From contig NC_059429.1 in the NCBI RefSeq assembly GCF_021028975.2, positions 100,688,001 through 100,752,000 of the forward strand: 64,000 nucleotides of DNA. The letters run 5' to 3'. Shown one piece after another: positions 17,791-61,400 of this stretch (position 1 is its first letter; the number at the start of each line of letters is the position of its first letter). Source of the stretch: Sphaerodactylus townsendi. Its lineage: Eukaryota. The notes beneath the pieces were generated by a model. That model was given only the letters and a program-made list of their open reading frames with translations. It ran no database searches and was not told where the DNA came from. The position numbers and the translations under genes are program-made.

Positions 17791-18277
17791 GGTCTGAATC
17801 CCCCACTCTACCATGATCTTGGGTCAGTCACACACTCTCAGCCTAGCTTACCTCACAGGGTTGTTGTAAGGATAACATGGAGAAAAGAAGAACAATGTTG
17901 TGGCCCATGTTGGATCCCTACTGGAGAGAAAAGCAGGACAAATATACATATATAGTTTAATAAATGCATATTAAATAATACGTGTATTATAAAAACAAAA
18001 GAAGGCATCACAGATGGTCCTTTTTCAAAGTGCCAGTGAGTGGACAGATCACGCTGAGAAGAGAAATTCAGCAGTAGTGAATTCTGTAAGAACTCTCTAT
18101 TCCCATTCTACCTCCCAGCATTCCCATCAGAAAGGAAAGGAACCCACCTATCCTCTATCAGAGCAGATGACAGGTGAAAAAGTGCTGAGCAATTTCCTGT
18201 CACCAGATTCAGATGTTGTGCCCAGAACCTTTGATTTGGTTGGGTTCCCTGACACAGTGGCTGGTTTGGTCTTGCAG

Positions 18278-18529
18278 CTGGAATCCAAGGGTGGGAAAGG
18301 CCTGACGGATCGAGCCCTCCCTGACTGGAAAGCAGCTCTGAAGCGGGAGCGGGAAGAGCACCAGCACCTCCTGGCTGAGTCCTACAGTGCTGTCATGGAC
18401 CTGACCAAACAGCTGCAAATCAGTGAGAAGAACTGGGACCAGGAGAAGCTGGAGCTCTTGGGCCACTTCAAGATTGAGCAACAAGCAGCAGAACAGGAAG
18501 TGAGGGAGCTGCAGAACAAACTGAACCAG
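18278..18529 (+). CDS. MTCL2: MTCL2/SOGA1 coding exon (84 codons)
   Basis: ttgcag|CTGGAA...AACCAG|gtaggg; LKREREEHQHLLAESYSAVMDLTKQLQISEKNWDQEKLELL SOGA-family coiled coil; phase 0-0. Confidence 0.92.
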
Positions 18530-19058
18530 GTAGGGGCTGAGTTGGTGTTCTTAAATAATCTCTTTTTCTCTAAGTGCAGCTCTCTGTACTCAGACAAGTA
18601 TGAATATACCCTATATAAGTTCCAGAACTGATGCATGTTCCTTGCTATGAATGTAGATACATAGGGGAACCTGAGTTCCAGAATCTGTAACCATGTCTTA
18701 TATGGATGTTAGTACGTGTATATATATGAGGAAATCACTGCTTCCCCAAGTAAAGCAAACAAGGCAAACTATAGTAGACCTCCCTTGCATATAAATTGCT
18801 CCAGATAAATCCTGTGAAGCAAGGCATGCATGCAACAGAGGGCGGTGACCTCCCCAGCTCTGGACAAGTCACTGGTTCATACAGCCTGAGGGAAATTCCT
18901 TTTTGACTCCAAATATGGTGAAAACTTGACTGAGTCTTCCCAAGATAAATCATAGTGAGCTGTGTATCCTTGCTATGTAATGATCTTGATTCATTTTTCC
19001 CTGTGTAAAGAGTCTCCACTGCAAACATCATAGAGGTATGGTGAGACTCTCCTTGAAA

Positions 19059-21458: not shown

Positions 21459-22822
21459 GTGAGAGGCATGAAGTGCTTTTTGCATAGCTCCAGGGGTTGG
21501 GTTATTTCTCTCAGTTCTTCAGCATCTGGAAATAGGTAGCATTCTTCTCTCCTCACGCCCCTATCTGATAATTAGGAAGAAAAGCATGCCCATCACTAGG
21601 AAGCAACACCACTGGTTTCCTTTGAGCACTCTAGAAATTGCAATTGGCCTTACAGGACACCGTGACAGGTTTAGCCTAGCTTTTCAGCTGGCTGGATAAC
21701 ACAAAATGACAGATTTTTCCCATGCAGGCCAAGTTGCTGGGGCTATGTCATTTGCCTTCTGTGAGTGTAAATGTTCACTGTGTGACTCTCTTGCTGACTT
21801 CCACTAGACTAGTGTCTTCCTCTTCTGAGTGTCTCTTAGACAAATGATGCTGGGAAAACCAATGTTTTTAATCTACTTTCTCAGTGAAAATGCAAAACAT
21901 GTCTAATAATGCTTGTTGTCTTGTTTAATTTTTCCATTGGCTTCCATTGTGGTCTCTGAAGCTGTTTATTTGGGGAAAAATTAAAAGGCATGGGGTTATC
22001 CCAGCTGCTCTTTAGCAAAAGTCTATCACATAACCTTTGTGTATTGAAAGCTGAAATGGAGGTGGGAATGGTTGAACTTCAAGCAAAAATTTGTTAGTAA
22101 ATCCAGGATAGTTACTATCCTCTGGTTTTATAAACAAAATCATACTCTCCATGATAAGAGTAACCGGGGGAAGGTGGTGGTGGTAACATTGCACATAGCC
22201 TTCTATTGTGAGCATGAACCTCCTTATCCATGGTGTGTGGAAGTCTAGCAGCTTTTCTGAGGAAAAGGAGACAGGAGAGTCCCCTTTTGATTGTAAGGGA
22301 TTATGGGACCTACTTGTAGGAATGGAGGAGCAAGTGAAGAGGGAAATTGAATGAGATGAGCAGAAAAGCTGGTTGCATCTAGTCCATTGTCCTTAACCAC
22401 AACGATGGCAAGTGTCCTTTTTCACTGTTCCCAGCATTATTTTTCCTACTTATATTTTTGGCCATTATGGAATAAAACAAAAGGCAGAAGACAAGAGTCT
22501 TTAATATCTGAATAGTTAATGCAGATATAGTAGCAGATGTTCCAGGTCCATGCCACAGTCTGGCCTATGGTTAGCTTGAGCTTTGCAGAAGTCATGGCTT
22601 CTACTATCTTTCAGCTTTTCCCTCATGCATGTAAGGCAGTCAGAAAAAGAATGACAAAATTGGCCCTTACAGAGAAACATGGAAGCAGGAAAGTGGGTAT
22701 ACAGCCTAGCAGTGGAAATGGGCCTTCTGTTTAGAGAGATATGAGTCAGAAGCCAGAAATAATCCACTTTTCAAAACTGTTATGAAGATTTGCTGTACTC
22801 ATTCCTTTCTTGTCTCCTCCAG

Positions 22823-24272
22823 GACAAAGTCAGTTTCCTCAATGTCTGAATTTGAAAGTTTGCTCGACTGTTCACCTTACCTTTCTGGCAAGACCAGCCC
22901 TGTGGTCACAGATAATACCAACATCAAAAAAGGGTCTTCACCTGCTCAGATGGTGACTGACACATTAAATGACACTGTAGGGGTCGCCCCCAAGAACTGT
23001 GCTTATGTGAATAGTGAGCAACCCACATCTGAGAACCAGGCCACAGAGGACCTGGCCGCCTCATCATGTGACTGCACCAAGGCCGACATCTTGTCCGTGC
23101 AGGATCAGTCCCAGAAACAAATACAGAGGAGCCACACAGCCCCAGACAAGACTGGGATCCGTATTTACTATAGCCCCCCAGTGGTGAGGAGGTTGGAAAC
23201 GCCTCTGGTGCACAACAGAGAGAGGAAAATCATGGTTGAGCCTGGCTTCTTATTCACAATGGCTAAACCCAAGGAGGAGTCAGACAACTCAGAAAACATG
23301 TACAGCAGATGGCTGTGCAACTTCTCCAAGCAACATCGTGAGCTGCTTGATGGTGGTACTGTTAGCAAGAAAACTGTGGCTCCTGTCCCCAGATTTCCAT
23401 CCTCCCTGCATGACCTGGAGATCTCTGGAAACATGAGTGATGACATGAAGGAGATCACCAATTGTGTCCGTCAAGCTATCCGTTCCAGCTCTCTGGAGAG
23501 AAAGGTGAAGAGCACTTCCAGCCAGACAGTGGGACTGACCAGCGTCGGCACTCAGACCATCCAGACTGTCAGCATTGGTCTACAAACAGACATGCCCAGA
23601 GGCAGCATCCACAGCAGCAAAAGCTGGTCCCCTCGAAGCTCTTCACTCATGTCTATGCGCAGCAAGCAGATTTCCTCATCTCTGGACAAAGTCCATTCCA
23701 GGATTGAACGGCCCTGTTGCTCCCCCAAGTATGGCTCCCCCAAACTCCAGAGAAGATCATCTTCTAAGCTGGACAACTCTAAGGATCGAAGCCTGTGGAA
23801 CCTCCACCAGAGTAAGCAAAATGGGTCCGCTTGGGCTCGGTCCACGACCACCAGAGATAGTCCAGTCCTCAGCAATATTAACGATGGCCTGTCCAGCTTG
23901 TTCAATGTTGTGGAGCATTCTGGGAGTACCGAATCCATCTGGAAGCCAGGGTGCCAGGAAAGCAAAGCCAAGCCAGAGGCACCCAAATACGGAATAGTGC
24001 AGGAGTTCTTCCGGAATGTGTGTGGCAGAACTCAGAGCCCCACTTTCGTTCCTGAGAAGAAGGATCCCACAGGAGTAGAAAGCAGCAGCAAGAAGCCAGA
24101 TCACCCATCTTTAGCTGTGCCCCAGCAGTCTGAAACCACCCCCAAGACCCTTGACAAAAAACCCTTAAAGCAAGGTTGCATTGAGGAACCAAAGCTGTCC
24201 ACCTTGAGCCAAGGAGGCAAGGACAGAGCCTTAAGGGAGCCAGACATCATCTCTGCTACTATTGCCAATGAG
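22823..24272 (+). CDS. MTCL2: MTCL2/SOGA1 large penultimate coding exon (1450 nt)
   Basis: ctccag|GACAAAG...AATGAG|gtaatg, inside the 511-aa ORF; family motifs RTKSVSSMSEFESLLDCSPYL, DKTGIRIYYSPPV, NMSDDMKEITNCVRQAIRSSSLERK, SAWARSTTTRDSPVL. Confidence 0.95.
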
Positions 24273-25318
24273 GTAATGTTTTGTGTTCCCAGAAATGATG
24301 TACTAGCTGAGATCTGACCAGCCCTGAAGGTCCATCTGTGGGCTAAAGCGTAGGATAGGATAGGATGCCTTCCATCTGCTAACAACTTGAGGGGCCAAAG
24401 ACGTCAAGAACATCCAGTGTTTTGGGATGTGATTACAACTTAGACTCTAAATCCACATCGTCGTTATCTGGCTGGTCCAGGGCGGGGGAGAGGGTCCTCT
24501 CAGTATTGGGCAAGGGACCTGATAAATTGTACACATTTTTTGGCAGTCACTCACTTGAAGCTGTGTAACAAGGAAGCTGCAGGCAGATTGCACAAATGGC
24601 TTGAATATGTTGTAAATCAAAAGGGCACTGACAGCAGTCATATGATATAGCGCTTAGAGTGTCAGTGTGGGATCTGGAAGACCCAGGTTTGAATCCCAAC
24701 CCTGCCATGAAAACTTGCTAGGTAACCTTGGACTAGCCACACATTTTTGAACCGAATGTATCTCACTGGGTTCTTTGGAGGATTAAACGGAGAAGAGAAT
24801 AATGGTGAAAACTGCTTTTGGTCCCCACCGGGGAGAATGGTGGGGTATAAATAAAGCAGGTAAATATAAAACAGACTGGATCTTAAACCTTAATTTGGAA
24901 GTCATGCTTACTATGCCCCAGTACCAGTGGTGGTGGGGGTGACTGTAGAAAGTGCTGTCATCACAGCTAACTTATGGACCCCAAGAGAGCTTTTTTGACA
25001 AGAGACAAACATAGGTGGTTGGCCATTGCCTTCCTCTGCAAAGCAACCATAAAAGTGGTTGTTGTTATTTTTTAGCATTTACTCCATACAGGTTCAAAGT
25101 GAATCCCCTCAGTGTAACATTCCTGTGAGGTAGGCCTCAATAGTTGCTCCATATTGCCATGGGGTGGGTGAGGTTTGAAGGCTTGTCTCAAGGACACCTA
25201 GGGATGGAGGTGGGTTTTGCATGGGGAACTGATTCCCACCCAACACCAGATCTCTGTTAGTGTCTTTCCTCTGCAAACCATCCCTTTTCACTGTGCCACT
25301 TTTCCCTTCTCTTTGCAG

Positions 25319-48079: not shown

Positions 48080-50521
48080 AGCCAGGGTTAGGATTGAGAG
48101 TGTGTGACTGACCCAAAGTCATCCAGCAGGCTTCCATGGCATGAATGGGGATTTGAACCTGGTTTCCCAGGCCTTGGTCTGACACCTTAACCGCTAACCA
48201 TGTTGCTCTTATTGTTGCTGTGCTGTATACAAATTCTCCTCCAGAAGATTCTGCAGAAGCCACCTGGATTATTGTGGCATATGTTATCATAGGCAAGAGC
48301 TCATCCCATGAGATGTACTCCCCAAAACTTTGCAGAAGTAACATAGCATTGCTAATCGACTGTCTTCTCATTTCCTAGTGGGATGGACCCCTGCTTTGGA
48401 TTCAGGCCAGGAAAGTACATGGCCCAGAAGGGGTTCCTGCACCTGACTTGGAGTCCTTCCCCTAGCCCTGTGGTTTCTCTTCTGCACTCTCAGTGCCTGC
48501 TTGTCACTCATCTTTAAAAGGAGCGAGGAAAAGCTATAGCTCCTGCTAGTCATCTCACCCTCTCCCTCCAGACAGTCGTGTTAATTAGGACCAGAGAGGA
48601 ACAGCAAAGGAATGGGCAGCAGCAAGTGAGCCCACTTAGAGGAGGGGCCCAGCTGAGACCATCTTGTCTAAGGGCCCCTCAAACCCGACCAGTGCTGCTT
48701 CCAGTGAATGAGGACTGGTTCCTCCCTATTCTCTGCCAGAAATTGGTTTGTACACAGCATGGTAGGAAAGAAGCAATGCACCTTGGTTTTGTGGAAAGTG
48801 CCATGACTGCCTTGCAATGGCAATGCATGGATGTGACCACTCGGGGAAGAATTATTGGTTAGTCTTGCAAATCTGCCATTTGAATTCTATGTTTGCAAAG
48901 ACAGTGGGAATGCATGGGTGAAGGATATGTACAGGGCTACCATTAGCAAGTAGGGAGGAGAACGTAACCCCTTCTATGGTCATAGACTCTCACGCACAAT
49001 GCTTCCTCCTTGAGGGTATTTTCCTCCCAGCTAGGTTCATTTCTTTTTAAACTAGGGAATCATTGCAAACCATCTTATTGTAACTTGTGTGATGTAATGT
49101 AAGCCTCTATGCATGTACAAAATTGCCATTACACACCAGCAAAGAACTACTGTCAAAGTCCTTCCCCCACTTCCCTTGGGATTAGAGTTTGTGGACTGAA
49201 GAGACAGAATACTCAGGCAAGATTAAACTCCGGAACATCACACTACGGAAAATGAAGTACTTCACTGCAAAAGGTCAAAGAACAGAAGGAGCTTAATGCC
49301 CAGGCAATCTCAAGAGCCACCATATTTTTGCAGAAAAACAAGTTTTTTGGGTGAATGGCCTTTTAAAAATTGAGTCAAGAAAACCTCCACTCTGTATCCC
49401 AAGATTCACAAGTCTGTACTTGTGAAGAGTGGATTTTATTACTTCCTCCTGGTAATAGGGAATAATTTATAGCTTGTAGATGAAGGTCTGCAAGCAAATA
49501 TGGCTGGAAATGAAGGACTTTGTGCTGTTTCTTAACCTGTGAAGATGGGAAGAGTTCTCCTCATCTCCATAGGCACATGCACACACCTGTTTGCAAAGCT
49601 GGATCCTGGCTTTACAAGGGGAGCAGCAGGGTCAGGGTGCCTGAGTGCTCCCCATCTCCATAGGCGTGCCCCCATTTGCAAAGCTGGATCCCAGTTTTGA
49701 AAAGGGGGGGGAACCAACAGGGTGTTTGTTGCCCTTGTGCAGCTGCTTTTGCAACAGCAGTGCCTTTTTTTTTAAAGCATTTGTGCGAAGGCAGCAGCAT
49801 TTCCTACAGTGGCAGTCTTAGCAAGGTCTGCTGGAAAGTATAAGTGGAATCTGGACCCTCCTCGATGGTTGAGGACTACCATTCCCAGGAACCCTTGCCT
49901 TTTCTGGTTCAGAATTGGGAGCTTGCTACACAATTATATAGTAAGGTAACTGTCTGTAAAACAGTCTTGTAAATCTAGTCAGCACTATTGTATCTCTACT
50001 GCAAAAGAAACTGGGGATGAGGGAGTAGCCTGCTTAAGGTCCCCTAGTGAATTCATGAGAGAGGAGAGATTCGAACCAGGGGGTTCCTGCTTTATAGCTC
50101 AGTATCTTTGATGCTAGGCAACACCAGTTCCCCTTCATGGGTGCTTCATCATCAGCTTGAGAATAGCTCTGCTAATTTTCTTATCTCAAAAAAGCAGGAA
50201 GGAGCAACAAGTAATGAAAGGCACTGTGGTGGTATTAAGACTGACCTGCATTGGTCTGAGAGATTTGTTCCCCTGCCTCAGACTCTGGAACAAGCCTCCG
50301 ACTGACAACATTACCAAGCTTAATCTGGGTTTGGTCCAGTCAATTCAAAACAACACAAATAAAGCAAAATAAAACATTATTGAATATTTTTAAAAGACTT
50401 TAAAAGCAATATATTTCCAGTGACAGTATTAAGTATGCAGAAATAAAAAAAGCTCTCTTTCTACATACACTTACAGAAAGCAAGCAGCATGGATCTTAGC
50501 TTTTTACAACTACAGCAGTTG

Positions 50522-51258
50522 TGTTACCGCGCTGCTCAGGGTAACACTTTCCTTGCTCTAGAGTATCCCGCTCTCGGCAGCGCCCAGGAACCCAAGCAAG
50601 ACCCGACAAGGCTCGGATATATATAAAAGAGATTTATTGAGATGCTGACCTAAGTGTCAGCACCTCCCTTCTGCACAAACACTGCGCTGCCTAGCAGCCT
50701 TACAATCCCTTAAGTACACTTTCTCCCGTCGGGAGCCCGGGAGAACCAAAGACAGCCCACCACCATTCAAAACAACCAATCATACATTGCAACATGCAGG
50801 AACCAATCAATGTCCGATAGGCATTCCCTTCTCGAGTTTCGCGCCAGAGCAGGCGGCCGAGGCGATGGCATTAATCCCACTGGCGGGGGGGGACACACAA
50901 AGGTTTTCTCCAGGTGTCGGGGTCAGGAGGCAGAGGGGAAGCGATGACGTGTTCCCCTTATCTGCCTGCTGATGGGATTAGGCAGAACGAAGCCTCGGCG
51001 GAGGTTTCCCTTTGTCAGCGTGCATCAAGAAACTTTACCTGCGTGAATGGGATGGGTCGGGTGAGGCAGCGATGGCTCTCTGCCTTGGGCCCAAGGAGGT
51101 TCCATACAAACACAAGTACAGGAAACTTACAAATCCTATTGCTTATCTAATACAAACTAGTTTCTGCCTAGCCAAATACAAAACAGAATAAATCTTTCAA
51201 GCGTTTTTTGGATTTCAGACACAGTCCAGGGTAGGGATTCTCTCCTGGCTCCGTATCA
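50522..51258 (-). repeat. 3' LTR (737 bp)
   Basis: minus AATAAA at 50633-50638, ATTGG boxes in U3; preceded by the PPT. Confidence 0.95.
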
Positions 51259-51272
51259 TTTCCCCACTTTCT
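51259..51272 (-). other. polypurine tract
   Basis: AGAAAGTGGGGAAA immediately before the 3' LTR. Confidence 0.85.
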
Positions 51273-51424
51273 GGGCTTTCCGCCATTTGCAATCATGGCG
51301 TGAATGCCCAGGCTAATTCGCTGTGAGTACCGGGAAGGGGCCCTGGCTGCACTGGGTAGTCAGGGATGCGAGGAGCATGACAGGCTCTTGGCAGACGGCG
51401 GGGAGCATTGGGACCTTTAAGAAC

Positions 51425-52764
51425 TTATATCATACATATACAACAGAACATCAAAGTACACCCATAAATCAGGAGATCCCCAAGTAAACCCAACCAAAGA
51501 AGGAACAGAGGGTAGTCCAGGCACTTTCTGAAACGTTCGAATTAGCGGCGAGGGGGGGCGCATGGAGGTGTTCCGGCAACGGAGAAGACAAAGGGCTGAG
51601 TTGAGACAACACAGAAGGCAGAAAGCGTCGGGCCTGTGATGGGCGTCTTGGTCTTGAGGACCAGTAGAAAGCGAGGGTCCGTTTGAACTACAGCGGGTCA
51701 CCAGCGCAAAGACAGTTGAGTGATCACAGTTGACATTGACAAGCGCTTACACCGCCGCTCGAAGTCCGAGAATCCGGCTGCATCTGCAGAATCCTTGGCA
51801 TCTCGGGGAGGCGGCTCAGTCACCCGGGATCACCCCCCCTTTGGTACTTCTGGCGCCCGGGGTGGCTGTCAGCTGGCATGGCACGCTCTTCACATCTTGG
51901 CAACAGAAGTAGGTCAATGGCATCTTCGCCATGGCTCCCTGCGTCACCAGAGGCGGCCGGCATCGATCCCAGGTCGCGATCTCGCCCGAGGGGACATCCC
52001 AGCGCGGCGGGCATGAAGCAGCGAACTTCGGCTTGTCAGATCTAATGCCTGGAGCGGATCCCAATGCGGCAGACGCCAAAAGTCCATAATTTTTTATGAA
52101 AAGTGCCTGGACACCTCCCATGTAACTTGCTAAACAACGTTGCATAGGAAAAACACTTCGGTGAGAAACATACGGTATAGGGGTAAGCCGGCAAAGTAAG
52201 CGAAGGGAGGTGTCAGGGCGGGGCTGAAACCCTTAGGGCAAGAGCAAGCCTAAGCGTAGGTGAGCAGCGTCAATGGCGTGGCGTAAACAGGCTCCATGGT
52301 GTCTGGACCGCCACCACCAACAAGGGCTGGGCTATAGGAATCATGGGTATGCATAGCTAATTACAGGCGAAAAAATGAATTCACAACAGGGTTTCCCGGA
52401 TCCCAGACCGTTTCCAGCGGAGAGTGGCATAGGCCATGAGGGTGTCCAGTGGCGATGTAAGTAACGGTTTCCAATTGTGGTTTTTAATGGTGTCCACGTG
52501 TCTGTGAATATGCTACTTAGGAGGGCAAAACTTCCGGAGTTCCCAAGCTAGACATATGCAGTCTTCTTAGGAACCGTCATTGTCCCTGGTTTCACGTGCT
52601 GCCCTGCGCTTCCAGCACATTGCACAGTAGGACTGGTTTTTTAACTGTAAATATGTTGATATGTAAATATAGGCCAACTGTACATAGTTTTTGGGGAGTG
52701 ACCCTGCTAAGGTCCTCCCTTGCTGAGTAGTGAAAAGAAAAGCGAAACAGAGAGGAAAATCCAT
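51425..52764 (-). pseudogene. env: decayed env
   Basis: splice acceptor ctctgttttcag at 52859; gccATGG with hydrophobic leader; NQSYCAMC (CxxC); SY..L....GRC; AIDLLLLPRCEE ISD-like; C-terminal hydrophobic/Cys segment. Confidence 0.6.
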
Positions 52765-53569
52765 GGCGAGTGGTCTGAACCACAGCGGTCCAACCCAACC
52801 CGCCAGTGTGGTCCCTTCCTTCTTGTGGATGGTGCCGTCATGGTGGAAAAGGGCCAATCTGAAAACAGAGCTTGTAGAACTGGGCCAAAACAGAGTAGCC
52901 AGAAACAGAGTGGAAACTGAGCCCATGTGGCAAAATCGTCCAGTGCTGGTACAGTTTTCCTAACCCTTGCCCGAACAGAAAAATGCACCTAAGCAAAGAA
53001 ACAGCATAGCGTGAACTCCCTCCCCCCCTTTCATCCTAGTGATACCCTGAAACCAGCCCGTAGCCTTCCCCTTATGCGACTTTTTTGGCGGCAGTTGTGG
53101 CACTATTCCTAAGCGGCTTTATTGAATGCAAAACTCCGTTCGATCTGTTAAGCCCAACTGCGGCAGGAAGGGAGGCTTCACTCTATGGCAACCAAGAAGC
53201 TGAGGTGCGGGGTTTTGGCCGAGTCCGAGCACGTGTCAGCCTGAAAATCGCCTCCCAGCGGGGGACTCACAGCCACTAATCCCTTGTCTACAGAATTGGC
53301 TGGAGCCTCAGGACTGAAATTCTGCGTGTGCTCTGAGACTGCAGCGTTTCTAAGGGCGAAGAAGAAAAAAGCTGGCTGGTTGAAGAAAGCGGCTGGTTGG
53401 ATCTGAGACATTGCATCCATTTTAAAGCGTGGTCTGGATTCTCTCCACCCCCCTGAGGCAATGTCTCAGAAACAACACCAAAACCAGACCCACCGAACCA
53501 AGGCGTTGCAAAATCCCAAAAAGCCAGGGGACCCAACAAAATTAGGGGAGGCTAAGGGGCAGAAGGAGG

Positions 53570-54190
53570 CAGAAAGGAAGCGAAAAGCCAAGGCCACCTG
53601 CCCGCACCGCGTAGACCCGAGGAGGGCTGCAAATCGGCCCAAACCATGAGTGAAGAGGAAAACTGCGCCCGAGACGGCAGGGGCAGGGCTTCGGTGCATG
53701 AGGGCAGCGGGGCGGGGCAACAGAACCACGTGTCCCGGCTCTAAAATTCCCCTTAGCTGCCCGCGCTCACATGAAGACGGGGGCCAGGAGGCACCCGGGC
53801 AGAGCAGGAGGCATGGCGCCCCAGGTGTGGAGTCAGAAGGGGACCAGCAATGGCTGGCCGAGGGGACGGGCCAGCCCAAGGCAGCGAGAGGGACAGAGTT
53901 GTGGTCAAAAGCGGTCCGGGGAATCCCACACGCACAGCAGCCACCGTTCTACATGCTGTATAGCACAGCCCCGAGCAGCTATAAGCCTTTGCAGTGGGCC
54001 AGCGGGTATAAGAGGAGGAGGGATACAACATCATTCTCGAACCCAAAGGCGAAGCGCAGGTCAGGCCGCTGAAACTCCAGCGCTTACCGTTTGGAGTCGA
54101 GGAACACAGTCCGTGCAGCTAAGTAAGAGCTTGGACAAGCAGGGCACATCGGGAGCTGGGAGTCGGGTCTCCAGCCCGAAGGACTGATTC
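53570..54190 (-). pseudogene. heavily decayed integrase core/C-terminal remnant
   Basis: in order, across frameshifts: FGL, S(N)GK..E-like, LEPGHVVLL, WFGP(F)AALL. Confidence 0.45.
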
Positions 54191-54269
54191 AGTGATGGGG
54201 CCCATCAGGCCGGGGCCCGGCGGGGGCGAATTTCCCTCAATTCAGGTCCCAAAGTCAACGAGCAGCCAG

Positions 54270-54600
54270 AGTGGGGAAAATGAAAGGGGAGGCGTTCAAT
54301 TTGAGAGTAGTCGGCGGCCCAAAAAAAAGGGAGACGGGCAATCCTCCATGTTGAGGAAGGAATGCTTTCACGACCGCCACCGGGCAGCCGGAGACAGAAG
54401 TGGGGCGGTAGGGAACAAGCTGCAGCTTCGCCACTAGCACCCATGATACGCACCTCACTCCCCGTGCGTGGGAGCGGAAAGGTAGAATTCAGAACAGAGC
54501 AGGAGGCCCCAGTATCAACCAACATGGGAATAGAGGCTGCAAAACAGGAAAATCGGGTCAGAGGGGATAGGGGAGCGAGGCCATCAGGGGCGCCACAAGG
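54270..54600 (-). pseudogene. pro: retroviral aspartic protease
   Basis: MLVDTGASCSVLN (DTG at 54508-54516), flap IMGASG, decayed LGR..L motif. Confidence 0.85.
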
Positions 54601-55179
54601 CAATAAGCCCTCGGCGAAGGGCCGCAAAGGGTCTAGCATCAACTCCGATACAGGCATCGAATCTGCGTAGGTCTACCGGGCGGATGAATCGCAGGGACAA
54701 GGGGAGAAACAGGCTCAGGAAGAACATCTTGCACATGTTCAGAGGCATTGGGAGGGCCAGGCAGCTTGTGGAGGAAGCCAAACACGGGGCTAATTCCATG
54801 GTGTGAACACGGGTGGGAGAGAGATGCGTTAGAGCGAGGCTGACCTCCGAGGTTGGTGAGGGCTGAATGATCCCAACGACCCACCTCAGTGGCTCCAGAA
54901 TGGAACAGGGACTTCAGGGGCGGAGCTGGCGATCACCCCCCCCCCCAGCGCCAGGCGAGGTAAAGATTTGGCGATGGCTGACGGAGCTCACTGCTTGAGC
55001 CGCCCGCTGCTGATCTTCGTGGGGAACTTCGGAGGCGCAAGGGGCGCTTGTCAACCCGAGGGGAGAGCGGCAGTTAGATTCGAGCCCAAAGATCCCAGAG
55101 CCTGCCTGTTGCTCCGGTCTCCAGATCCGGGCACCCACTCAAACGGGGTTCCCGTGCCTGGAAAAATTACCGGGCTGTC

Positions 55180-57322
55180 CTAGCGGAGGTTTGGGGAGAT
55201 TGCGCCGGGGGGTTGAAATGCAGAGACTGGGGCCTGGCAGACTGAGGGTTGCGGTAACTGTTGCCACGCGTGGCTGGGGTTGGCGGCCTCCCGAAGCCAG
55301 CAGCGCTTACACTCGGCGCCAGTGGCCATGTTGGCTGCAATAACTGCACTGATCTCTATCCAAGGGGCATTGCGTGGAGCCGACGGCCGGGCTGCGGGAG
55401 AGCCCTTGGTAACCCGAGCTCCCACCAAAATCCCGGTTCCCACCCAGCGGCCGGCCCGTAGGCTCCCACCACCACCTCCTGCAATGAATTCTGAATCTGC
55501 TCTAAGGCGGGGTTGTTGGGGCATGTAATGAAGTCCTGGGAACATTCCCATAGGATGGCTGGGAAACCAGGGTCTCGGCCATTGCTCACAGCTGCTTGTG
55601 GGCTCCTACTAGCTGGCGGTGGCGGTTCTTCCTTAACCTTCTCCTTCGCATCCTGTGCCATCTCCTCCCGCTCAAATATACAGTATTGGCGTTTTCGGAG
55701 ATCAGCCCGGATCCTTAAGGGTATTATCCGGGATCCGATTCAACTTTTCTAATATCCGGGCACTCCACCGGCGAACACGCTTATTGATTAGGCGTGGTAG
55801 ACTGGGTCGGTGGGATCCACCCGTGTCCATTTCGACTTTTCGAACGAATCGCGTTCCATAAAGGCGCGTGGTGACTCATCCTTGTTCTGAGCTAGCTGGT
55901 GAAGTTTGGACAGATCATGGCGTGATGGAGGCGCCATTTCGAGAACCGAGATTATAAAGCGCCGATAATTCCCCAATTTATCCCGGTCTGCCTCTCTGTT
56001 CACATCCCACCCTGGGTCTAACTTCGGGAACACCTCAGCCAATGTGGCGAGTGCGGCTCCTTCCTGATGAAATTAAGTCTACATATTGGGTGGCTTCGAT
56101 TCTAGCCGCCTTGCATGGTAAAACCCTCTCCTCCCGGTCAAAGGAGTAAGTAACAGCTGCTGGATATCCTTGAAAATTGGGCAAGTGGAATTGTGAAAAT
56201 GGATTCTACCAGTTGGGTCAGGGCCAAAGGGATCAGCGATTAATACGGGGAGGCGACCTCTCCTTCCAATTATACAGGTCGAAGGCAGTAAAGGGAACAT
56301 GGACATAAAGAGAACGGGCTGCGGTCGGGGTCATTCCCATCTGAGTACGGATGGAGAACATGCCGCCGGCGCCGCCTCGCACCTTTGACTCAACCCCACT
56401 TAGGCGGTCGGGAGCGGCGTCGAGCCGGTAGCGGCTGCCATTCTCTGAAGCTTGTAGACGGCGTGGATGGGAAAGATGGGGTCTCAACCATCTCGGTGGA
56501 GAGGGAGGCACCCGACCGTGGGGAAGACCAGGTTGGAGCCAAACCCGGGAACTCCTGAGGGCAGACTGCATACTATGAACTTGGGAGGCCACTTAGGTCC
56601 AGCATCTGAGCCAAATGCGATTGTACTGGGGTCGATGGGAGGAAGTCCCGGGAGGAGCCTGAATTCGAATTGGGGATGAGGGGCCGGACTCTCTCCGGGG
56701 GGAAAGCTGAGTCACGTGAGCTGTGGAGCCAGAAGGAGGGCCATCCCCATCTGAGGAGGCGGAGGGCACCACTCGAAGGCCCGCTATCAGTCGCATCTTG
56801 AGGGGAAACGACAGCCTGCTGTCCAAATGCTGGAGGGTTTTCCGTTTCTAGCCACACTTTCCGGTGGGGGCTGAGGCCATGCTAGCTTACTGGGAAATCT
56901 AATAGATCATCTGGGGGGGAGGGCAGGATCTCCATGGGGGCTGCCCTAAAACTACTGACTCCTCGGTGGACGCCTGGCTCCACCACTAGCATGATTTTGG
57001 TTCCCTGAACGCAGGCATAACTCTTGGGATTTCTATAGACCTCCATAAAGGTCCTCTCCAGTGTCTTAGCCTGCTTCTTTAACCCAGTGCTCCTTAGGAC
57101 CTGATACAAATTCTGGAGGACTGGCCAGCTAAACGAGCCGTTACTGCCCAGAGGCCGGCCCGGACAAATTGTAATTGGTCCATTAGCCTGCACCACGACT
57201 CCAACTTTCTTCTTAGACACGGGGCTGCGACTGAGCTTATTCCAGTTATACAGGACGCAAGCCAACTGGGTGGATTCTGGGAGAGACTTGAGGCTTCCAT
57301 CCTTAGACCCACAGGCTCCCAT
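55180..57322 (-). pseudogene. gag: gag (MA-CA-NC), frameshifted in this assembly
   Basis: myristoylation-type start MGACGSK; CA motifs YVHVPFTAFDLYNWK, DIQQLLL, FPKLDPGWDVN, MHR QNKDESPRAFMER; single zinc knuckle LDRDQCSYCSQHGHW..EC at ~55308-55365. Confidence 0.9.
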
Positions 57323-57725
57323 TTTCTAACCAACTCTGCTCGCTAATTTCTGACCTGGGCTTCTGTTCCCGTCCTTCCCGGACCAAAACCCGTTTGCAAA
57401 ATTCCTGGGCCTAAGGACACGCTGGGTTTAAACCTGGCCTGGGTTCTTTCTTGTCCTTCGGACTAACCCTTAACGCCGAGGCCCTCCGTTCCCCTTCTTT
57501 ATGGCTCCCACGGAAAATTCTCTCTCTCTCTCTCTCTCTCTCTGGGATCTCCCGTCCCCTTTTTCGCCAGAGTCCGTCTCACCTGTCCTGCAGAGGGCGC
57601 CCACAACCTCCGACCAAACAGGTCCTCCGACCTCGAATCGCTGCAACCAGCGCCGTTCTCGGAACTGCACTCCGCCAGTCGGGTCGGTTCCTCGAAAACA
57701 ACCGGTTCTCCCGTAGGTTCAGGAA

Positions 57726-57743
57726 ATCCCGAGACGAGCCCCA
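57726..57743 (-). other. primer binding site, tRNA-Pro type
   Basis: TGGGGCTCGTCTCGGGAT vs MLV PBS-Pro TGGGGGCTCGTCCGGGAT. Confidence 0.85.
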
Positions 57744-57745
57744 AC

Positions 57746-58465
57746 TGTTACAGCTGCTCAGGGTAACACTTTCCTTGCTCTAGAGTATCCCGCTCACCGG
57801 CAGCCCAGGAACTCCAAGCAAGACCCGACAAGGCTTCGGATATATATAAAAGAGATTTATTGAGATGCTGACCTAAGTGTCAGCACCTCCCATCGCACAA
57901 ACACTGCGCTGCCCTAGCAGCCTTACAATCCTTAAGTACACTTTCTCCCGTCGGGAGCCCGGGAGAACCAAAGACAGCCCACCACCATTCAAAACAACCA
58001 ATCATACATTGCAACATGCAGGAACCAATCAATGTCCGATAGGCATTCCCTTCTCGAGTTTCGCGCCAGAGCAGGGCGAGGCGATGACGTGTCCACTGAC
58101 GGGGGACACACAAAGGTTTTCTCCAGGTGTCCGGGGTCAGGAGGCAGAGAGCGATGACGTGTTCCCCTTATCTGCCTGCTGATGGGATTAGGCAGGGCAA
58201 GGCGCCTCGACGGAGGTTTCCCTTTGTCCGCGTGCATCAAGAAACTTTACACGTGAATGGGATGGGTCCGGGTGAGGCAGAGATGGCTCTCTGCCTTGGG
58301 CCAAGGAGGTTCCATACAAACACAAGTACAGGGAAACTTACAAATCCTATTCTTATCTAATACAAACTAGTTTCTACCTAATAAATACAAAACAGAATAA
58401 ATCTTTCAAACGTTTTTAGTTCAGACACAGTCCAGGAGCGGGATTCTCTCCTGGCTCCGCTATCA
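57746..58465 (-). repeat. 5' LTR (720 bp)
   Basis: direct repeat of 50522-51258; abuts the PBS. Confidence 0.95.
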
Positions 58466-61400
58466 GTTGTAATGCAGAGCATGCAGCACTTAGAAGTCCT
58501 TTGTGTGCCTAGTTCAGTTCCAGTACAATCCTAAACTGAGCTCTATCAATAAACTTAGAAGGGCATAACTCCATTTAGGATCGAAGTGGCAGTTGTTAAA
58601 AGGGAAAGAAGGAACATTTTAATGACCACACAAAAAGACCACTGGGAACACTGACACTTCTGTTATACAGAATTAAAACGCAATGCTCTATTTCCAGCTT
58701 TCTTCTAGCTTTTCCAGGTGGTCTCAAAAAAGTCTCTTTCATATGCTCTCACAGGCTTCCAAACACAGAGTCTGACAGTGGAAACTTACTGGAGAAGGCA
58801 AGTCTAATTTTACTTAACTACCCTTGACTGTGTCCCTTTATCTTCATGGTCCAAGTGGTAAATTGATACCATTGCAGTGAGGCTCAGCCTGAGCTTTCCA
58901 TATTCCCAACTGCAGAGTCATGTCAAGCATTTGCCAATGTCAGTCTGAATTCCTTACAGTTGTTTTGATCTTTTCTTCTTTGGCTCCCTTAGGCTGCACT
59001 TTCTCTTCTAGTCTCTGCTTCAAAGAAAATGTCTCTCCATCTTATTCTTCAGTTTGCCAAAGTCTTCAGGTGCTTCAAGTAGGTTATTTCTGCCCCTAGG
59101 GGAGCTGTTTTGCTTCTCTTAAGGGCTCCAAAGGCCACTGAAGGGTGCCCTATTGTAAACCCATCTTTTCTCATCAAAGAGCCACATAAAGTGATGAGGC
59201 CCTGGGCAAGCCTTTCGATCACTGAGAAAGAAAATGTGACCTGCTCTGTATCAGTTGAAAGGATTGTTGGCAATCAGGTGTCAAGGACAAGCACATACAG
59301 CAGAATTTTGTAGCATAGAAACAAAAATTGGAGCGGGGGGGGGGGGGGCACACACAGCACAGTGTATGTGATGCAACTTTTGCCAGTGCAAGAGCATCAA
59401 AAATTCATAGGAAGATGCTAAGGAGATTTGGAGGTTGCATGCCATTATTTGCAAAGCAAAAATATATCATATTTCAATATCAAGGAATATGCATGGCTGC
59501 TGGCATCCACCTTTTAAAATCCTTAGGAGAGGTTTCACTTTTGGATTCCTTAAGTCTATGTTGTCAAGTCTGTTCAGGGAGTATTCCTGGGTGGGGTCTT
59601 AGGCTGGAGATGGGCAACAGTTTTTAAGAGTACAGCAAAGATATTTGTGCATGGGAAATAGATCAGTCACTCCTTTTGTCCTGCTGTCTTCAGTTGAAGA
59701 GGTTTTTCAGATTTTTGAAGCACTTAAAACCTTTGCAAAACATGTTTACTAGAAATGATTGGGATGAACATATACCATGAGCACACAAACACAAAGCCCA
59801 TTATATGTCTTATATCATTTATCCTTCCAGCAACCTATGAAGGAAGGTTAAGCCAAGAAATATTAATTTTCCCAAGACTGCCAGTTTCTGAGTGGAAGGT
59901 TAAAGATCCACCTCCTGAGTATAAATGCAACCCCTCCCCCTCCCCCCGAAAGTCATTGTGGTGTCCTGGTTAGTGTAGTCACAGACTAGAATCTGGGATA
60001 CCCAAGTTCATATCTTTATGTACAATGGAAGTTCACTACATGATCTTAGGTAAGTCACATAGTCTCAATCTAACCTACCTTACAATGCTGTTTTGATAGT
60101 AAAACTGGCGAGAGAATGGGGAAAGACAGGATATATATGAAATTAATAGATATTTTTGTCATTTTTACAAATTCATAGAAAGCAAAAATCATATTTCAAT
60201 GTTCAGAATTTGGTTCTGCAAGGAGAGGAAAGTTTGTCATGTTTTCAAGGGTATTTGTAACATCTATCCCATCTTGTCACATTGCTTTATTATAACTAAT
60301 CCTTTTTTGCCATTAATTTACTTCTCCCCCTTCTTTATATACAACATATTGTGCGGATGATCTCACAGAGCACTGAGTGAGCACTGCTATGCTCAGGAAG
60401 CTGTAATTGAAGCTCAGGAAATATTCTTCACCTGTTACACCTGTTGCTCGCTCTCACTACCTTATTGATTGTAATTCCTAGCTGATAGACTCTGAGTGGC
60501 ATTTCTTTCCAGCTGTCATAGGTAAACAGAGCCAGATGTTATTTTAAAAGCTTTGCATAGAACCAGTATGAGAATATGGGCATTAAAAATATAGACAAAA
60601 TAAGAACTCTTTAGGAACAGAGTTTAGGCCCCCAAAACTGAAAATTAAATCAATTAATGCAATACTTTTGGACAACCCTACATTATCCTTCTATTTTTGA
60701 AGTCAGGAGATAGCATACTTTGGAATCAACCATTTTAAACAGTTTCAACTCATGGGAATGTTGGGGCATTTCTTGCTCAGTCATATGGGAGAAATTCTGA
60801 GTAGCAAGAGTATGCTTCATACGAAATTGCTTGATCAAAAATTTTTGCTCATCCAACCATGGGAGAGCAGGTAGAGAGGAACTGCTTGCCAGGGCATATT
60901 GGTTGCGGGTTTGTACTGCACTCATATTTGCTGAAACAGTCATTGCTGAGTTAGAGGCAATGATTGAGACTTCTTCATTTAACACCTTGCTTCTTTAAGA
61001 GCTTCCTTTATATCAGCAACTCACTTTGCATCAGAGGAAAATATATGCAGAGGAAACATGCTGGGCCCATAACCTTTTATTGTATTGTAATGAATTAGCA
61101 GAGCAAATAATAGAGCAGAGATGCAAATGAGTTGGTTTGTAGAACTTTACTAGATAACAAATGAATTTGCACTAAATATAGGAACAGCAAACTCTGTCTA
61201 TGCAAGTGCTCAGTCTGGGTCTCTGTGCAGACTATTTGTGCCTGTGTGTCTATTTCTCTTCTTTTGCTGAAAGAAGCAGAGAGATCTTTCCAGAAGCTCA
61301 TGTGATTACAGGCATGTGACTTCAGCAGTAAACTTGTTTGATTGAATGTAAACTCCTAAAAATGTATTTAGATTAAACTGAGTGAACCATGGAAATTACA

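Follow-up and report, generated by a model that had tools for sequence, protein, structure and literature searches.

A gamma-like endogenous retrovirus family of Sphaerodactylus townsendi that retains gag, protease and a long open frame derived in part from pol

The DNA considered here, termed the window, is a stretch of 64,000 nucleotides of Sphaerodactylus townsendi (NCBI RefSeq assembly GCF_021028975.2, contig NC_059429.1, positions 100,688,001 to 100,752,000 of the forward strand), which carries on its minus strand at positions 50522-58465 an endogenous retrovirus (ERV) without the greater part of pol. This element belongs to a family of similarly shortened copies, designated the short family, in which gag and protease are under purifying selection and are followed by an open reading frame (ORF) of about 470 codons, designated X. 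The frame of X is very probably kept open by selection, and as far as codon comparisons tell, it is the frame that is selected and hardly the protein. The family is almost certainly dependent on a helper. In our preferred reading, to which we assign a probability of roughly 0.45, the gag-pro elements would be copied by co-packaging with a full-length helper, and X would be kept free of stops so that ribosomes reading through the gag stop shield the RNA from nonsense-mediated decay (NMD).

The short family and its helper

Searches of the species' own genome yielded first-look candidates for the long terminal repeat (LTR; 1374), the junction downstream of the protease (112), gag (118) and the 3' region (102), 40 of which were scored per search, and the resulting set comprised 113 fetched loci and the window. 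The short layout was found in 76 of these, a count that includes the window and one hybrid and, with tandem neighbours among them, corresponds to about 70 sites. The remaining loci were 14 with a helper-type reverse transcriptase (RT) core, 17 with only an LTR in the fetched stretch, and others that were truncated or belonged to other families. The share of short loci is biased, since most came from queries of their own middle; the best 40 matches to gag, an unbiased query, comprised 25 short, 10 helper-type and 5 truncated or hybrid copies.

An RT core was present in one of the 76 short loci (the hybrid L037), RNase H and the integrase core in none. Exact target-site duplications (TSDs) of 4 bp, differing between copies, flank 29 of the 35 short copies with two parsable full LTRs, and three of the six misses are tandem arrays. 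Since the loss of the RT core is common to the 76 loci and the TSDs are separate, the lesion preceded many separate integrations. Two claims of an earlier note on the window (the original prediction) are thereby borne out, namely that pol was lost before this insertion by a deletion shared with other copies, and that the element stayed mobile afterwards.

The helper copies, of about 9-10 kb, contain gag, pro, RT, RNase H, an integrase with an MLVIN_C domain and a TLV_coat env. The 14 loci with an RT core share the LTR, the type of primer-binding site (PBS) and gag with the short family, and thus agree with the autonomous partner of similar LTR and PBS that had been predicted; TSDs match in five of six parsed helper copies. 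The helper spacer between gag stop and protease (L003, L060, L064, L070) is Pro/Ala-rich and, with about 180-215 amino acids, unusually long; in short copies its first 75 codons are constrained (ratio of nonsynonymous to synonymous substitution rates, omega, 0.40).

Several loci depart from the common layout. In the hybrid L037 (G000:C877:1000-10500), gag, pro and the RT core are of helper type, and behind them stand a spacer, protease and X of short type, which makes two protease motifs. The locus mirrors the old pro duplication of the family, but its contig is small, and it may have arisen as a chimera of the assembly. Head-to-tail copies that share one LTR are L021/L042, L025/L039, L026/L057 and L015/L074 on small contigs, which may be collapsed repeats, and the chromosomal pair L032/L040 (C6:26.88 Mb), which looks like unequal LTR recombination; head-to-tail copies in C1176 lack most of the LTR. 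L035, with nearly identical LTRs, and L027 are short copies with further gag deletions of about 1.2 kb and intact TSDs, so a gag-less derivative may also have been mobilised.

The frame behind gag

In clean copies (L021, L026, L030, L034, L036 and L037), gag comprises 712-720 codons up to a TAG stop, behind which lies one uninterrupted frame of 824-849 codons. This frame consists, in order, of a spacer of about 205 residues, the protease, a decayed RT N-terminus (RT-N) that ends before the LPQG motif, a decayed duplicate of pro/RT-N, a piece of RT from behind the YxDD motif and a hydrophobic tail; X is the part behind the protease. The pro/RT-N duplicate was recognised by blastp in the least decayed copy, L015 (E 4e-18), and by nhmmer with E values down to 1e-21, and it is shorter in the sub-lineage of the window (S1) than in a second one (S2). 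Behind X, DNA in the position of env extends for 1.05-1.55 kb with 5-17 stops per sense frame in 15 sister copies, and its last 180 nt alone match the end of helper env.

The window copy carries the gag TAG, as do 14 short and seven helper loci, and 11 further matches were noisy. Thirteen short loci, belonging to S2, have TGG in its place, so that an uninterrupted Gag-Pro-X is encoded. Carriers of TGG include L015, L052, L053, L074, L075, L078, L085, L087, L088 and L096, and in some of them the stem behind the gag end is more altered.

No homologue of the X tail was found in Pfam, in helper DNA (nhmmer), in the protein database or among 1.84 billion representatives. For X as a whole, neither 7994 candidates of 462-1472 amino acids that were scored nor the 1.84 billion representatives included a homologue at E<=0.001. 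The tails of S1 and S2 are only about 50% identical to each other. An AlphaFold prediction of protease plus X (12 rows) was uninformative, with a mean predicted local distance difference test score (pLDDT) of 28.7 and the protease itself unfolded too. The X region (window 52709-54269) is poor in A (15% versus 21% in helper pol) and rich in T at every codon position, for which a bias of mutation, editing or selection on the RNA may be responsible. An antisense ORF of 233 codons found in many S1 copies was rejected as a common driver of the open frame because it is absent from L015, L088 and L053, whose longest ORFs in that frame have 108-121 codons.

Selection on gag, protease and X

Omega was estimated with codon models in IQ-TREE on natural unbroken segments. 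The values of 0.15 for matrix (MA), 0.58 for the p12-like region, 0.14 for capsid (CA), 0.38 for the region behind CA including nucleocapsid (NC) and 0.25 for protease (PR) support the predicted constraint on gag-pro (dN/dS<1), and the helper genes gave 0.12 (RT), 0.07 (RNase H) and 0.11 (integrase). For X, omega was 0.89 (0.93 under GY; p=0.07 versus 1), with 0.85 in S1, 0.93 in S2 and 0.88 when chromosomal copies only were used, and its parts gave 1.21 (RT-N), 0.94 (duplicate), 0.59 (thumb, the post-YxDD piece; p=0.08) and 0.78 (tail residues 626-780; p=0.03). Site models (M1a/M2a) assigned 81% of the codons of X to the neutral class, compared with 8% for CA and 22% for PR. Positive selection in X was considered and rejected: the preference for M2a over M1a (p=0.008) concerns about 1% of sites and is probably due to misalignment.

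Stop codons are distributed differently. In eight clean copies, X has no in-frame stop, versus 12-20 in the other sense frames, and on the internal branches joining 14 open copies, which had been chosen for their openness, about 20 nonsense changes were expected and none was seen. In a test free of that choice, all 76 loci were compared with the nearest clean copy in gap-free windows, and the X frame was found to have acquired 19 new stops in 3845 substitutions (4.9 per 1000, one shared site), a depletion of about six-fold. The controls gave 27-29 new stops per 1000 off frame (19-21 shared sites) and 25-31 for DNA in the env position, and the gag frame had 10.9; inherited events are tallied repeatedly in all these counts, so that p-values overstate independence. 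The depletion holds for RT-N, for the duplicate and for the tail up to about residue 780, and does not reach significance in the thumb piece, which is short. Summed over the tree, X carries about 1.06 substitutions per site. Judged from the stop comparisons, it is not simply decayed but maintained as an open frame.

Assembly noise and age of the insertions

The assembly is noisy in these repeats: 35 LTR pairs differ by 1156 indels versus 1027 substitutions, the two being correlated (rho 0.82), and gag of the window differs from the clean copy L021 by 85 indels, 66 of them of one base, and 117 substitutions over 2160 nt. The window copy has no new in-frame stop in gap-free windows, and its frameshifts are likely to be assembly errors. 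In short-read contigs of organism A, the junction of flank and LTR matches without difference over about 750 nt, and the longest internal pieces among the matches listed are short and nearly all gapped, with 308 disagreeing indel places, which gives no more than a hint.

This noise, together with the location of some open copies on small tandem contigs, bears on the view that no selection keeps the frame open and that it is a mere leftover or an artefact, either because polishing or collapse homogenised the copies or because pol function was lost too recently for stops to arise. We consider this very unlikely. Errors and homogenisation are not frame-specific, yet the depletion is confined to one frame across the 76 loci; the chromosomal, TSD-bearing copies L030 and L053 are also open, and chromosomal copies give the same omega. 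A recent loss of function is difficult to reconcile with the divergence reached by X and with the closure of all frames in the env-position DNA next to it.

The LTRs of the cleanest copies diverge by 0.3-1.2% in short elements and by 1.6-2.1% in helpers. In organism C, a contig of 3285 nt follows the left flank as far as 50522 and then diverges from the window, which suggests, from the left junction only, an empty site. All four runs, which carry three organism labels, cover bins internal to the element. The family looks older than the split of these species, the window insertion younger. The apparent decay of ERVs and the ages of their LTRs can, in noisy long-read assemblies, be error.

Recombination between short elements and helpers

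Trees were restricted to low-gap copies (29 of 83 rows for capsid). In the LTR tree, short and long elements are fully mixed (9 label changes versus 9.5 when shuffled) and a single short clade is rejected (p of the approximately unbiased test, p-AU, 5e-5); they are also mixed in the capsid tree (p-AU 0.029). In the protease tree, short copies fall on one side, with one change versus 7.4 when shuffled and weak support of 82/47. The mixing in the former trees and the separation in the latter point to recombination between the two. A direct comparison of the short copy L034 with the helper L060 gave 91-99% identity from the leader through CA, including 96% in the 400 nt upstream of gag, and 61-81% from the spacer onward. 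The simplest reading is that the short pro-X block had one origin and that helper LTR, leader and gag were then captured repeatedly, presumably through template switching within shared particles; part of the mixing of LTRs could be due to gene conversion.

What may keep X open

A stop directly behind the protease would cost no protease, and the open X therefore needs another cause. The position at which translation ends determines the length of RNA left before the poly(A) signal (AATAAA), which is 4.6 kb from the gag stop, 3.7 kb from the protease end and 2.1 kb from the stop of X. For murine leukemia virus (MLV), readthrough has been reported to block NMD of the long 3' untranslated region left by the gag stop (PMC4917968). 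That decay avoidance or ribosome transit is the cause of the open X appears to us a little short of an even chance.

Under the preferred reading of co-packaging and protection from NMD, the element's own Gag would favour packaging of its own RNA, and the protease, made by readthrough of the gag stop as in gammaretroviruses, would mature particles that contain helper Gag-Pol in diluted amounts. Helper Gag-Pol in these mixed particles would supply RT and integrase in trans, and template switching would refresh LTR, leader and gag. The pol-derived RNA might be retained for a role in cis and, lying behind the gag stop, would hence have to stay translatable, which is the least certain of these steps. 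Somewhat more tentatively, the family may be seen as a satellite retrovirus that co-evolved with its helper and made pol a 'translation runway' of about 470 codons selected only for being read, that repeatedly recaptured helper LTR, leader and capsid, and in which TGG became fixed in one branch, where the runway is then read every time. If this is true, the runway would be evidence, supplied by evolution itself, that reading through the gag stop helps the RNA to survive and not only to yield Pol.

Several observations weigh against the preferred reading. According to a reporter study, longer readthrough ORFs need more readthrough for reporter stability (PMC5360307), so that deleting X might serve the escape from NMD better than keeping it. 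In xenotropic murine leukemia virus-related virus (XMRV), a frameshift behind the gag stop is reported to have left Gag undiminished, with pol acting as RNA (PMC4174252). Within X, about 19% of codons fall into the slow class, and over residues 600-760 position 2 is more conserved than position 3, both of which hint at some constraint on the protein; the last 60 codons show no stop depletion (p=0.62); and multiples of three among indels of at least 4 nt (13 of 32, 17 of 28 and 22 of 59, versus 10 of 38, 10 of 39 and 6 of 29 in controls) are a weak signal. Every helper copy examined is broken somewhere in the assembly, and several open copies lie on unplaced contigs of 10-22 kb that may be collapsed repeats.

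The hints at protein-level constraint lead to a second explanation, which likewise assumes a helper-dependent family and which we regard as possible but doubtful: X would be open because its C-terminal segment (about residues 600-780, the thumb remnant plus the hydrophobic tail) works on a Gag-Pro-X fusion, the neutral middle being a linker. Roles proposed for this segment, each at the same low confidence, are holding the element's own RNA in cis, docking to helper Gag-Pol, a membrane or degron signal, and interference with the helper. The lower omega of thumb and tail (0.59 and 0.78, versus 0.94-1.2 upstream), the slow sites and the end of stop depletion near residue 780 fit this explanation, S2 with TGG (13 loci) always encodes the fusion, and the Gag-Pol fusion of the mouse intracisternal A particle (IAP) 1delta1 is described as acting in cis (PMC6466679, PMC7411935). 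They have to be set against the 81% of neutral codons, the lack of a homologue in any search and the low identity of the S1 and S2 tails. In addition, the enrichment in T extends to third positions and to the non-coding 3' region, so that the hydrophobicity may be a by-product.

A third explanation, in our view rather improbable, is that X is retained only as RNA, either as an export or polysome-loading element as in pol of MLV and XMRV or as a spacer of genome length, and that the frame is open because translation is needed for cis-preferential packaging and not for NMD. Gammaretroviral pol RNA is reported to lift Gag output about 30-fold in cis via NXF1, through two pol fragments (PMC4174252), and the title of Saito et al. 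2008 names translation itself as the determinant for IAP 1delta1. That pro/RT-N has been kept and even duplicated rather than deleted would also agree with it. If X served as an RNA element only, stops would not be expected to be depleted, yet the depletion is strong. Over residues 320-600, conservation is poor at position 2 as well as at position 3, so that no large conserved RNA element is evident there.

Structure of the window copy and its class

The element reads from 58465 (5' LTR, TG) to 50522 (3' LTR, CA) with exact bounds. Its features are as follows:

50518-50521: target-site duplication GTTG (left), 4 bp, identical at 58466-58469
50522-51258, minus strand: 3' LTR; 21 substitutions (1 of CpG type) and 24 mostly 1-bp indels versus the 5' LTR
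51259-51278, minus strand: polypurine tract (PPT); purine run also in sister copies
51279-51438, minus strand: remnant of the helper env cytoplasmic tail and 3' end; sister copies about 72% identical in nucleotides to the helper env end (nhmmer E ~1e-38)
51439-52708, minus strand: non-coding stretch in env position, closed in 3/3 sense frames, no nhmmer match to helper
52709-53390, minus strand: hydrophobic tail of ORF X, about residues 614-841 of the pro-X frame, open in clean copies
53391-53472, minus strand: remnant of the RT segment behind YxDD, in frame, which we take to be the start of the RT thumb; hhalign E 0.0009 (probability 23%), nhmmer E 1e-9 to 1e-13, in 76/76 short loci
53501-54010, minus strand: decayed second pro/RT-N copy (internal duplication), in frame, placed by alignment to L021; family nhmmer E 1e-14 to 1e-21
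54011-54269, minus strand: decayed RT N-terminus, ending before the LPQG motif; omega 1.2; L015 weakly matches MLV RT residues ~20-90 (E 0.016)
54270-54587, minus strand: retroviral aspartyl protease, DTG at 54508-54516; RVP E 1e-7 to 1e-8 in clean copies; omega 0.25
54588-55179, minus strand: spacer of ~205 codons from gag stop to protease, also in helper, with a predicted hairpin at its start
55180-55182, minus strand: gag TAG stop, in the frame of pro in clean copies; putative readthrough site
55183-57322, minus strand: gag (MA with N-terminal MG, p12-like region, CA, NC with one CCHC), 720 codons in clean copies; broken in the window copy by many 1-bp indels
57323-57725, minus strand: 5' leader, CpG observed/expected ratio (o/e) 0.93; putative packaging region by position
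57726-57743, minus strand: PBS of the type common to the helper, presumably tRNA-Pro
57746-58465, minus strand: 5' LTR (TG...CA, AATAAA)
58466-58469: target-site duplication GTTG (right), matching the left copy

The LTRs, about 720-740 nt each, are 94% identical per alignment column, and the PBS, 3' of the 5' LTR, exists in a cleaner version in sister copies. The cis signals listed in the original prediction (LTRs, TSD, PBS and PPT) are accordingly in place, and its abundance of CpGs is reflected in a CpG o/e of 0.60-0.93 within the element versus 0.09-0.46 in 2-kb bins outside. The absence of LPQG, YxDD and an RT core was likewise confirmed, as a motif search of the window element found neither motif and a profile of helper Pol matched none of the window's six frames. 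The gag and protease motifs, described there as crisp, could be verified in part: Gag_p30 (PF02093) matches the window fragment with E 1.6e-11 (3e-46 in a clean copy) and the protease DTG is present, but gag is riddled with indels relative to its clean sister. An eroded integrase remnant about 300 bp past the DTG proved to be a misassignment, the RT N-terminal remnant and the decayed pro duplicate lying there instead. As a candidate, the integrase remnant was rejected on the lack of homology to rve or helper integrase by Pfam, hhalign, profile search and nhmmer.

By sequence features, the element is a class I, gamma-like ERV, an assignment based on the capsid, the frame layout and the LTR, TSD, PBS and PPT, and its family has the sequence traits of a non-autonomous, trans-complemented ERV. 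A Gag_p30 capsid, whose best matches in PDB are MLV-type capsids (E 3e-39), is combined with a single CCHC; gag and pro-pol share one frame with TAG between them, presumably read through; and TG...CA LTRs, a 4-bp TSD, a PBS and a PPT are all present. The MLVIN_C and TLV_coat domains of the helper fit the gammaretroviral grouping. As to a readthrough pseudoknot of MLV type, the hairpin behind the gag TAG is conserved, with two-sided changes in 2 of 21 pairs and a covariation term of -0.76 from a tool that is blind to pseudoknots.

Neighbouring features

A host gene of the SOGA/MTCL family has exons at 17993-18631 and 22710-24317 of the window (plus strand), about 26 kb from the ERV, which is downstream and on the opposite strand. 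The first matches PF14818 (E 1e-18); the second has no Pfam match and is presumably part of the same gene. Two ORFs of other elements adjoin family copies. L051:42-2396 (minus strand), directly behind X of a short element, is an open beta-like gag of 785 codons with dUTPase (Gag_p10, Gag_p24, zf-CCHC, dUTPase) and probably a nested insertion of another ERV. L009:137-2701 (plus strand), beside a copy, is an ORF of 855 codons with PNMA and zf-CCHC matches (Ty3/Gypsy-type gag).

Comparison with known systems

The helper resembles an MLV-type gammaretrovirus in its Gag_p30, single CCHC, in-frame TAG between gag and pro-pol, MLVIN_C, TLV_coat Env, 4-bp TSD and Pro-type PBS, and differs from it in the spacer of 190-215 residues between gag stop and protease. 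The short family differs from the same type in the absence of the RT core, RNase H, integrase and Env. Plant TR-GAG elements are gag-only, non-autonomous elements of another LTR lineage, moved by the enzymes of helpers. Mammalian MaLR elements likewise belong to another LTR lineage and are described as having kept gag without pol and as using helper enzymes, as the short family probably does. We know of no retained open pol-derived frame in elements of the TR-GAG or MaLR type.

VL30 and ETn are essentially non-coding, whereas the short family is under coding selection. VL30/MLV and ETn/MusD are also helper-dependent ERV families, VL30 being of class I and co-packaged with MLV (PMC6466679). The D-type of cattle ERVK[2-1-LTR] is described as defective, with a poorly alignable centre, as outnumbering the competent C-type and as recombining in shared flanks, all of which it has in common with the short family; it is without intact ORFs (PMC10924933), whereas the short family maintains gag, pro and a long junk frame.

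The closest parallel is mouse IAP 1delta1, which is non-autonomous, keeps an ORF across its pol lesion and needs helper Gag/Pol, and whose fusion is reported to help in cis and which outnumbers its helper among new insertions (PMC6466679, PMC7411935). The selection for an open frame in X would fit a translated fusion of this kind. It is beta-like and arose by one deletion of 1.9 kb that took part of gag and pol (same sources). The short family, by contrast, is gamma-like, has the whole of gag and the protease under purifying selection and has a putative readthrough stop in S1, and its ORF is a mosaic (duplication, deletions, tail) that has drifted far at omega ~1.

Titles and opening lines of abstracts, a scope outside which most subscription journals and repeat databases fall, mentioned neither the short family nor any non-autonomous ERV with a pol frame that drifts neutrally and yet stays open. 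The helper-dependent ERVs described are non-coding or carry one recent in-frame deletion, and the short family differs from both. Over about 470 codons and a tree length of about one substitution per site, it separates two kinds of selection that are usually fused in a gene: stops are strongly selected against, whereas amino acids are under almost no selection. The family is a natural experiment on two questions, for what reason gammaretroviruses read through the gag stop, and which components a parasite of a retrovirus must supply itself (Gag, protease and a translated RNA) and which it can borrow.

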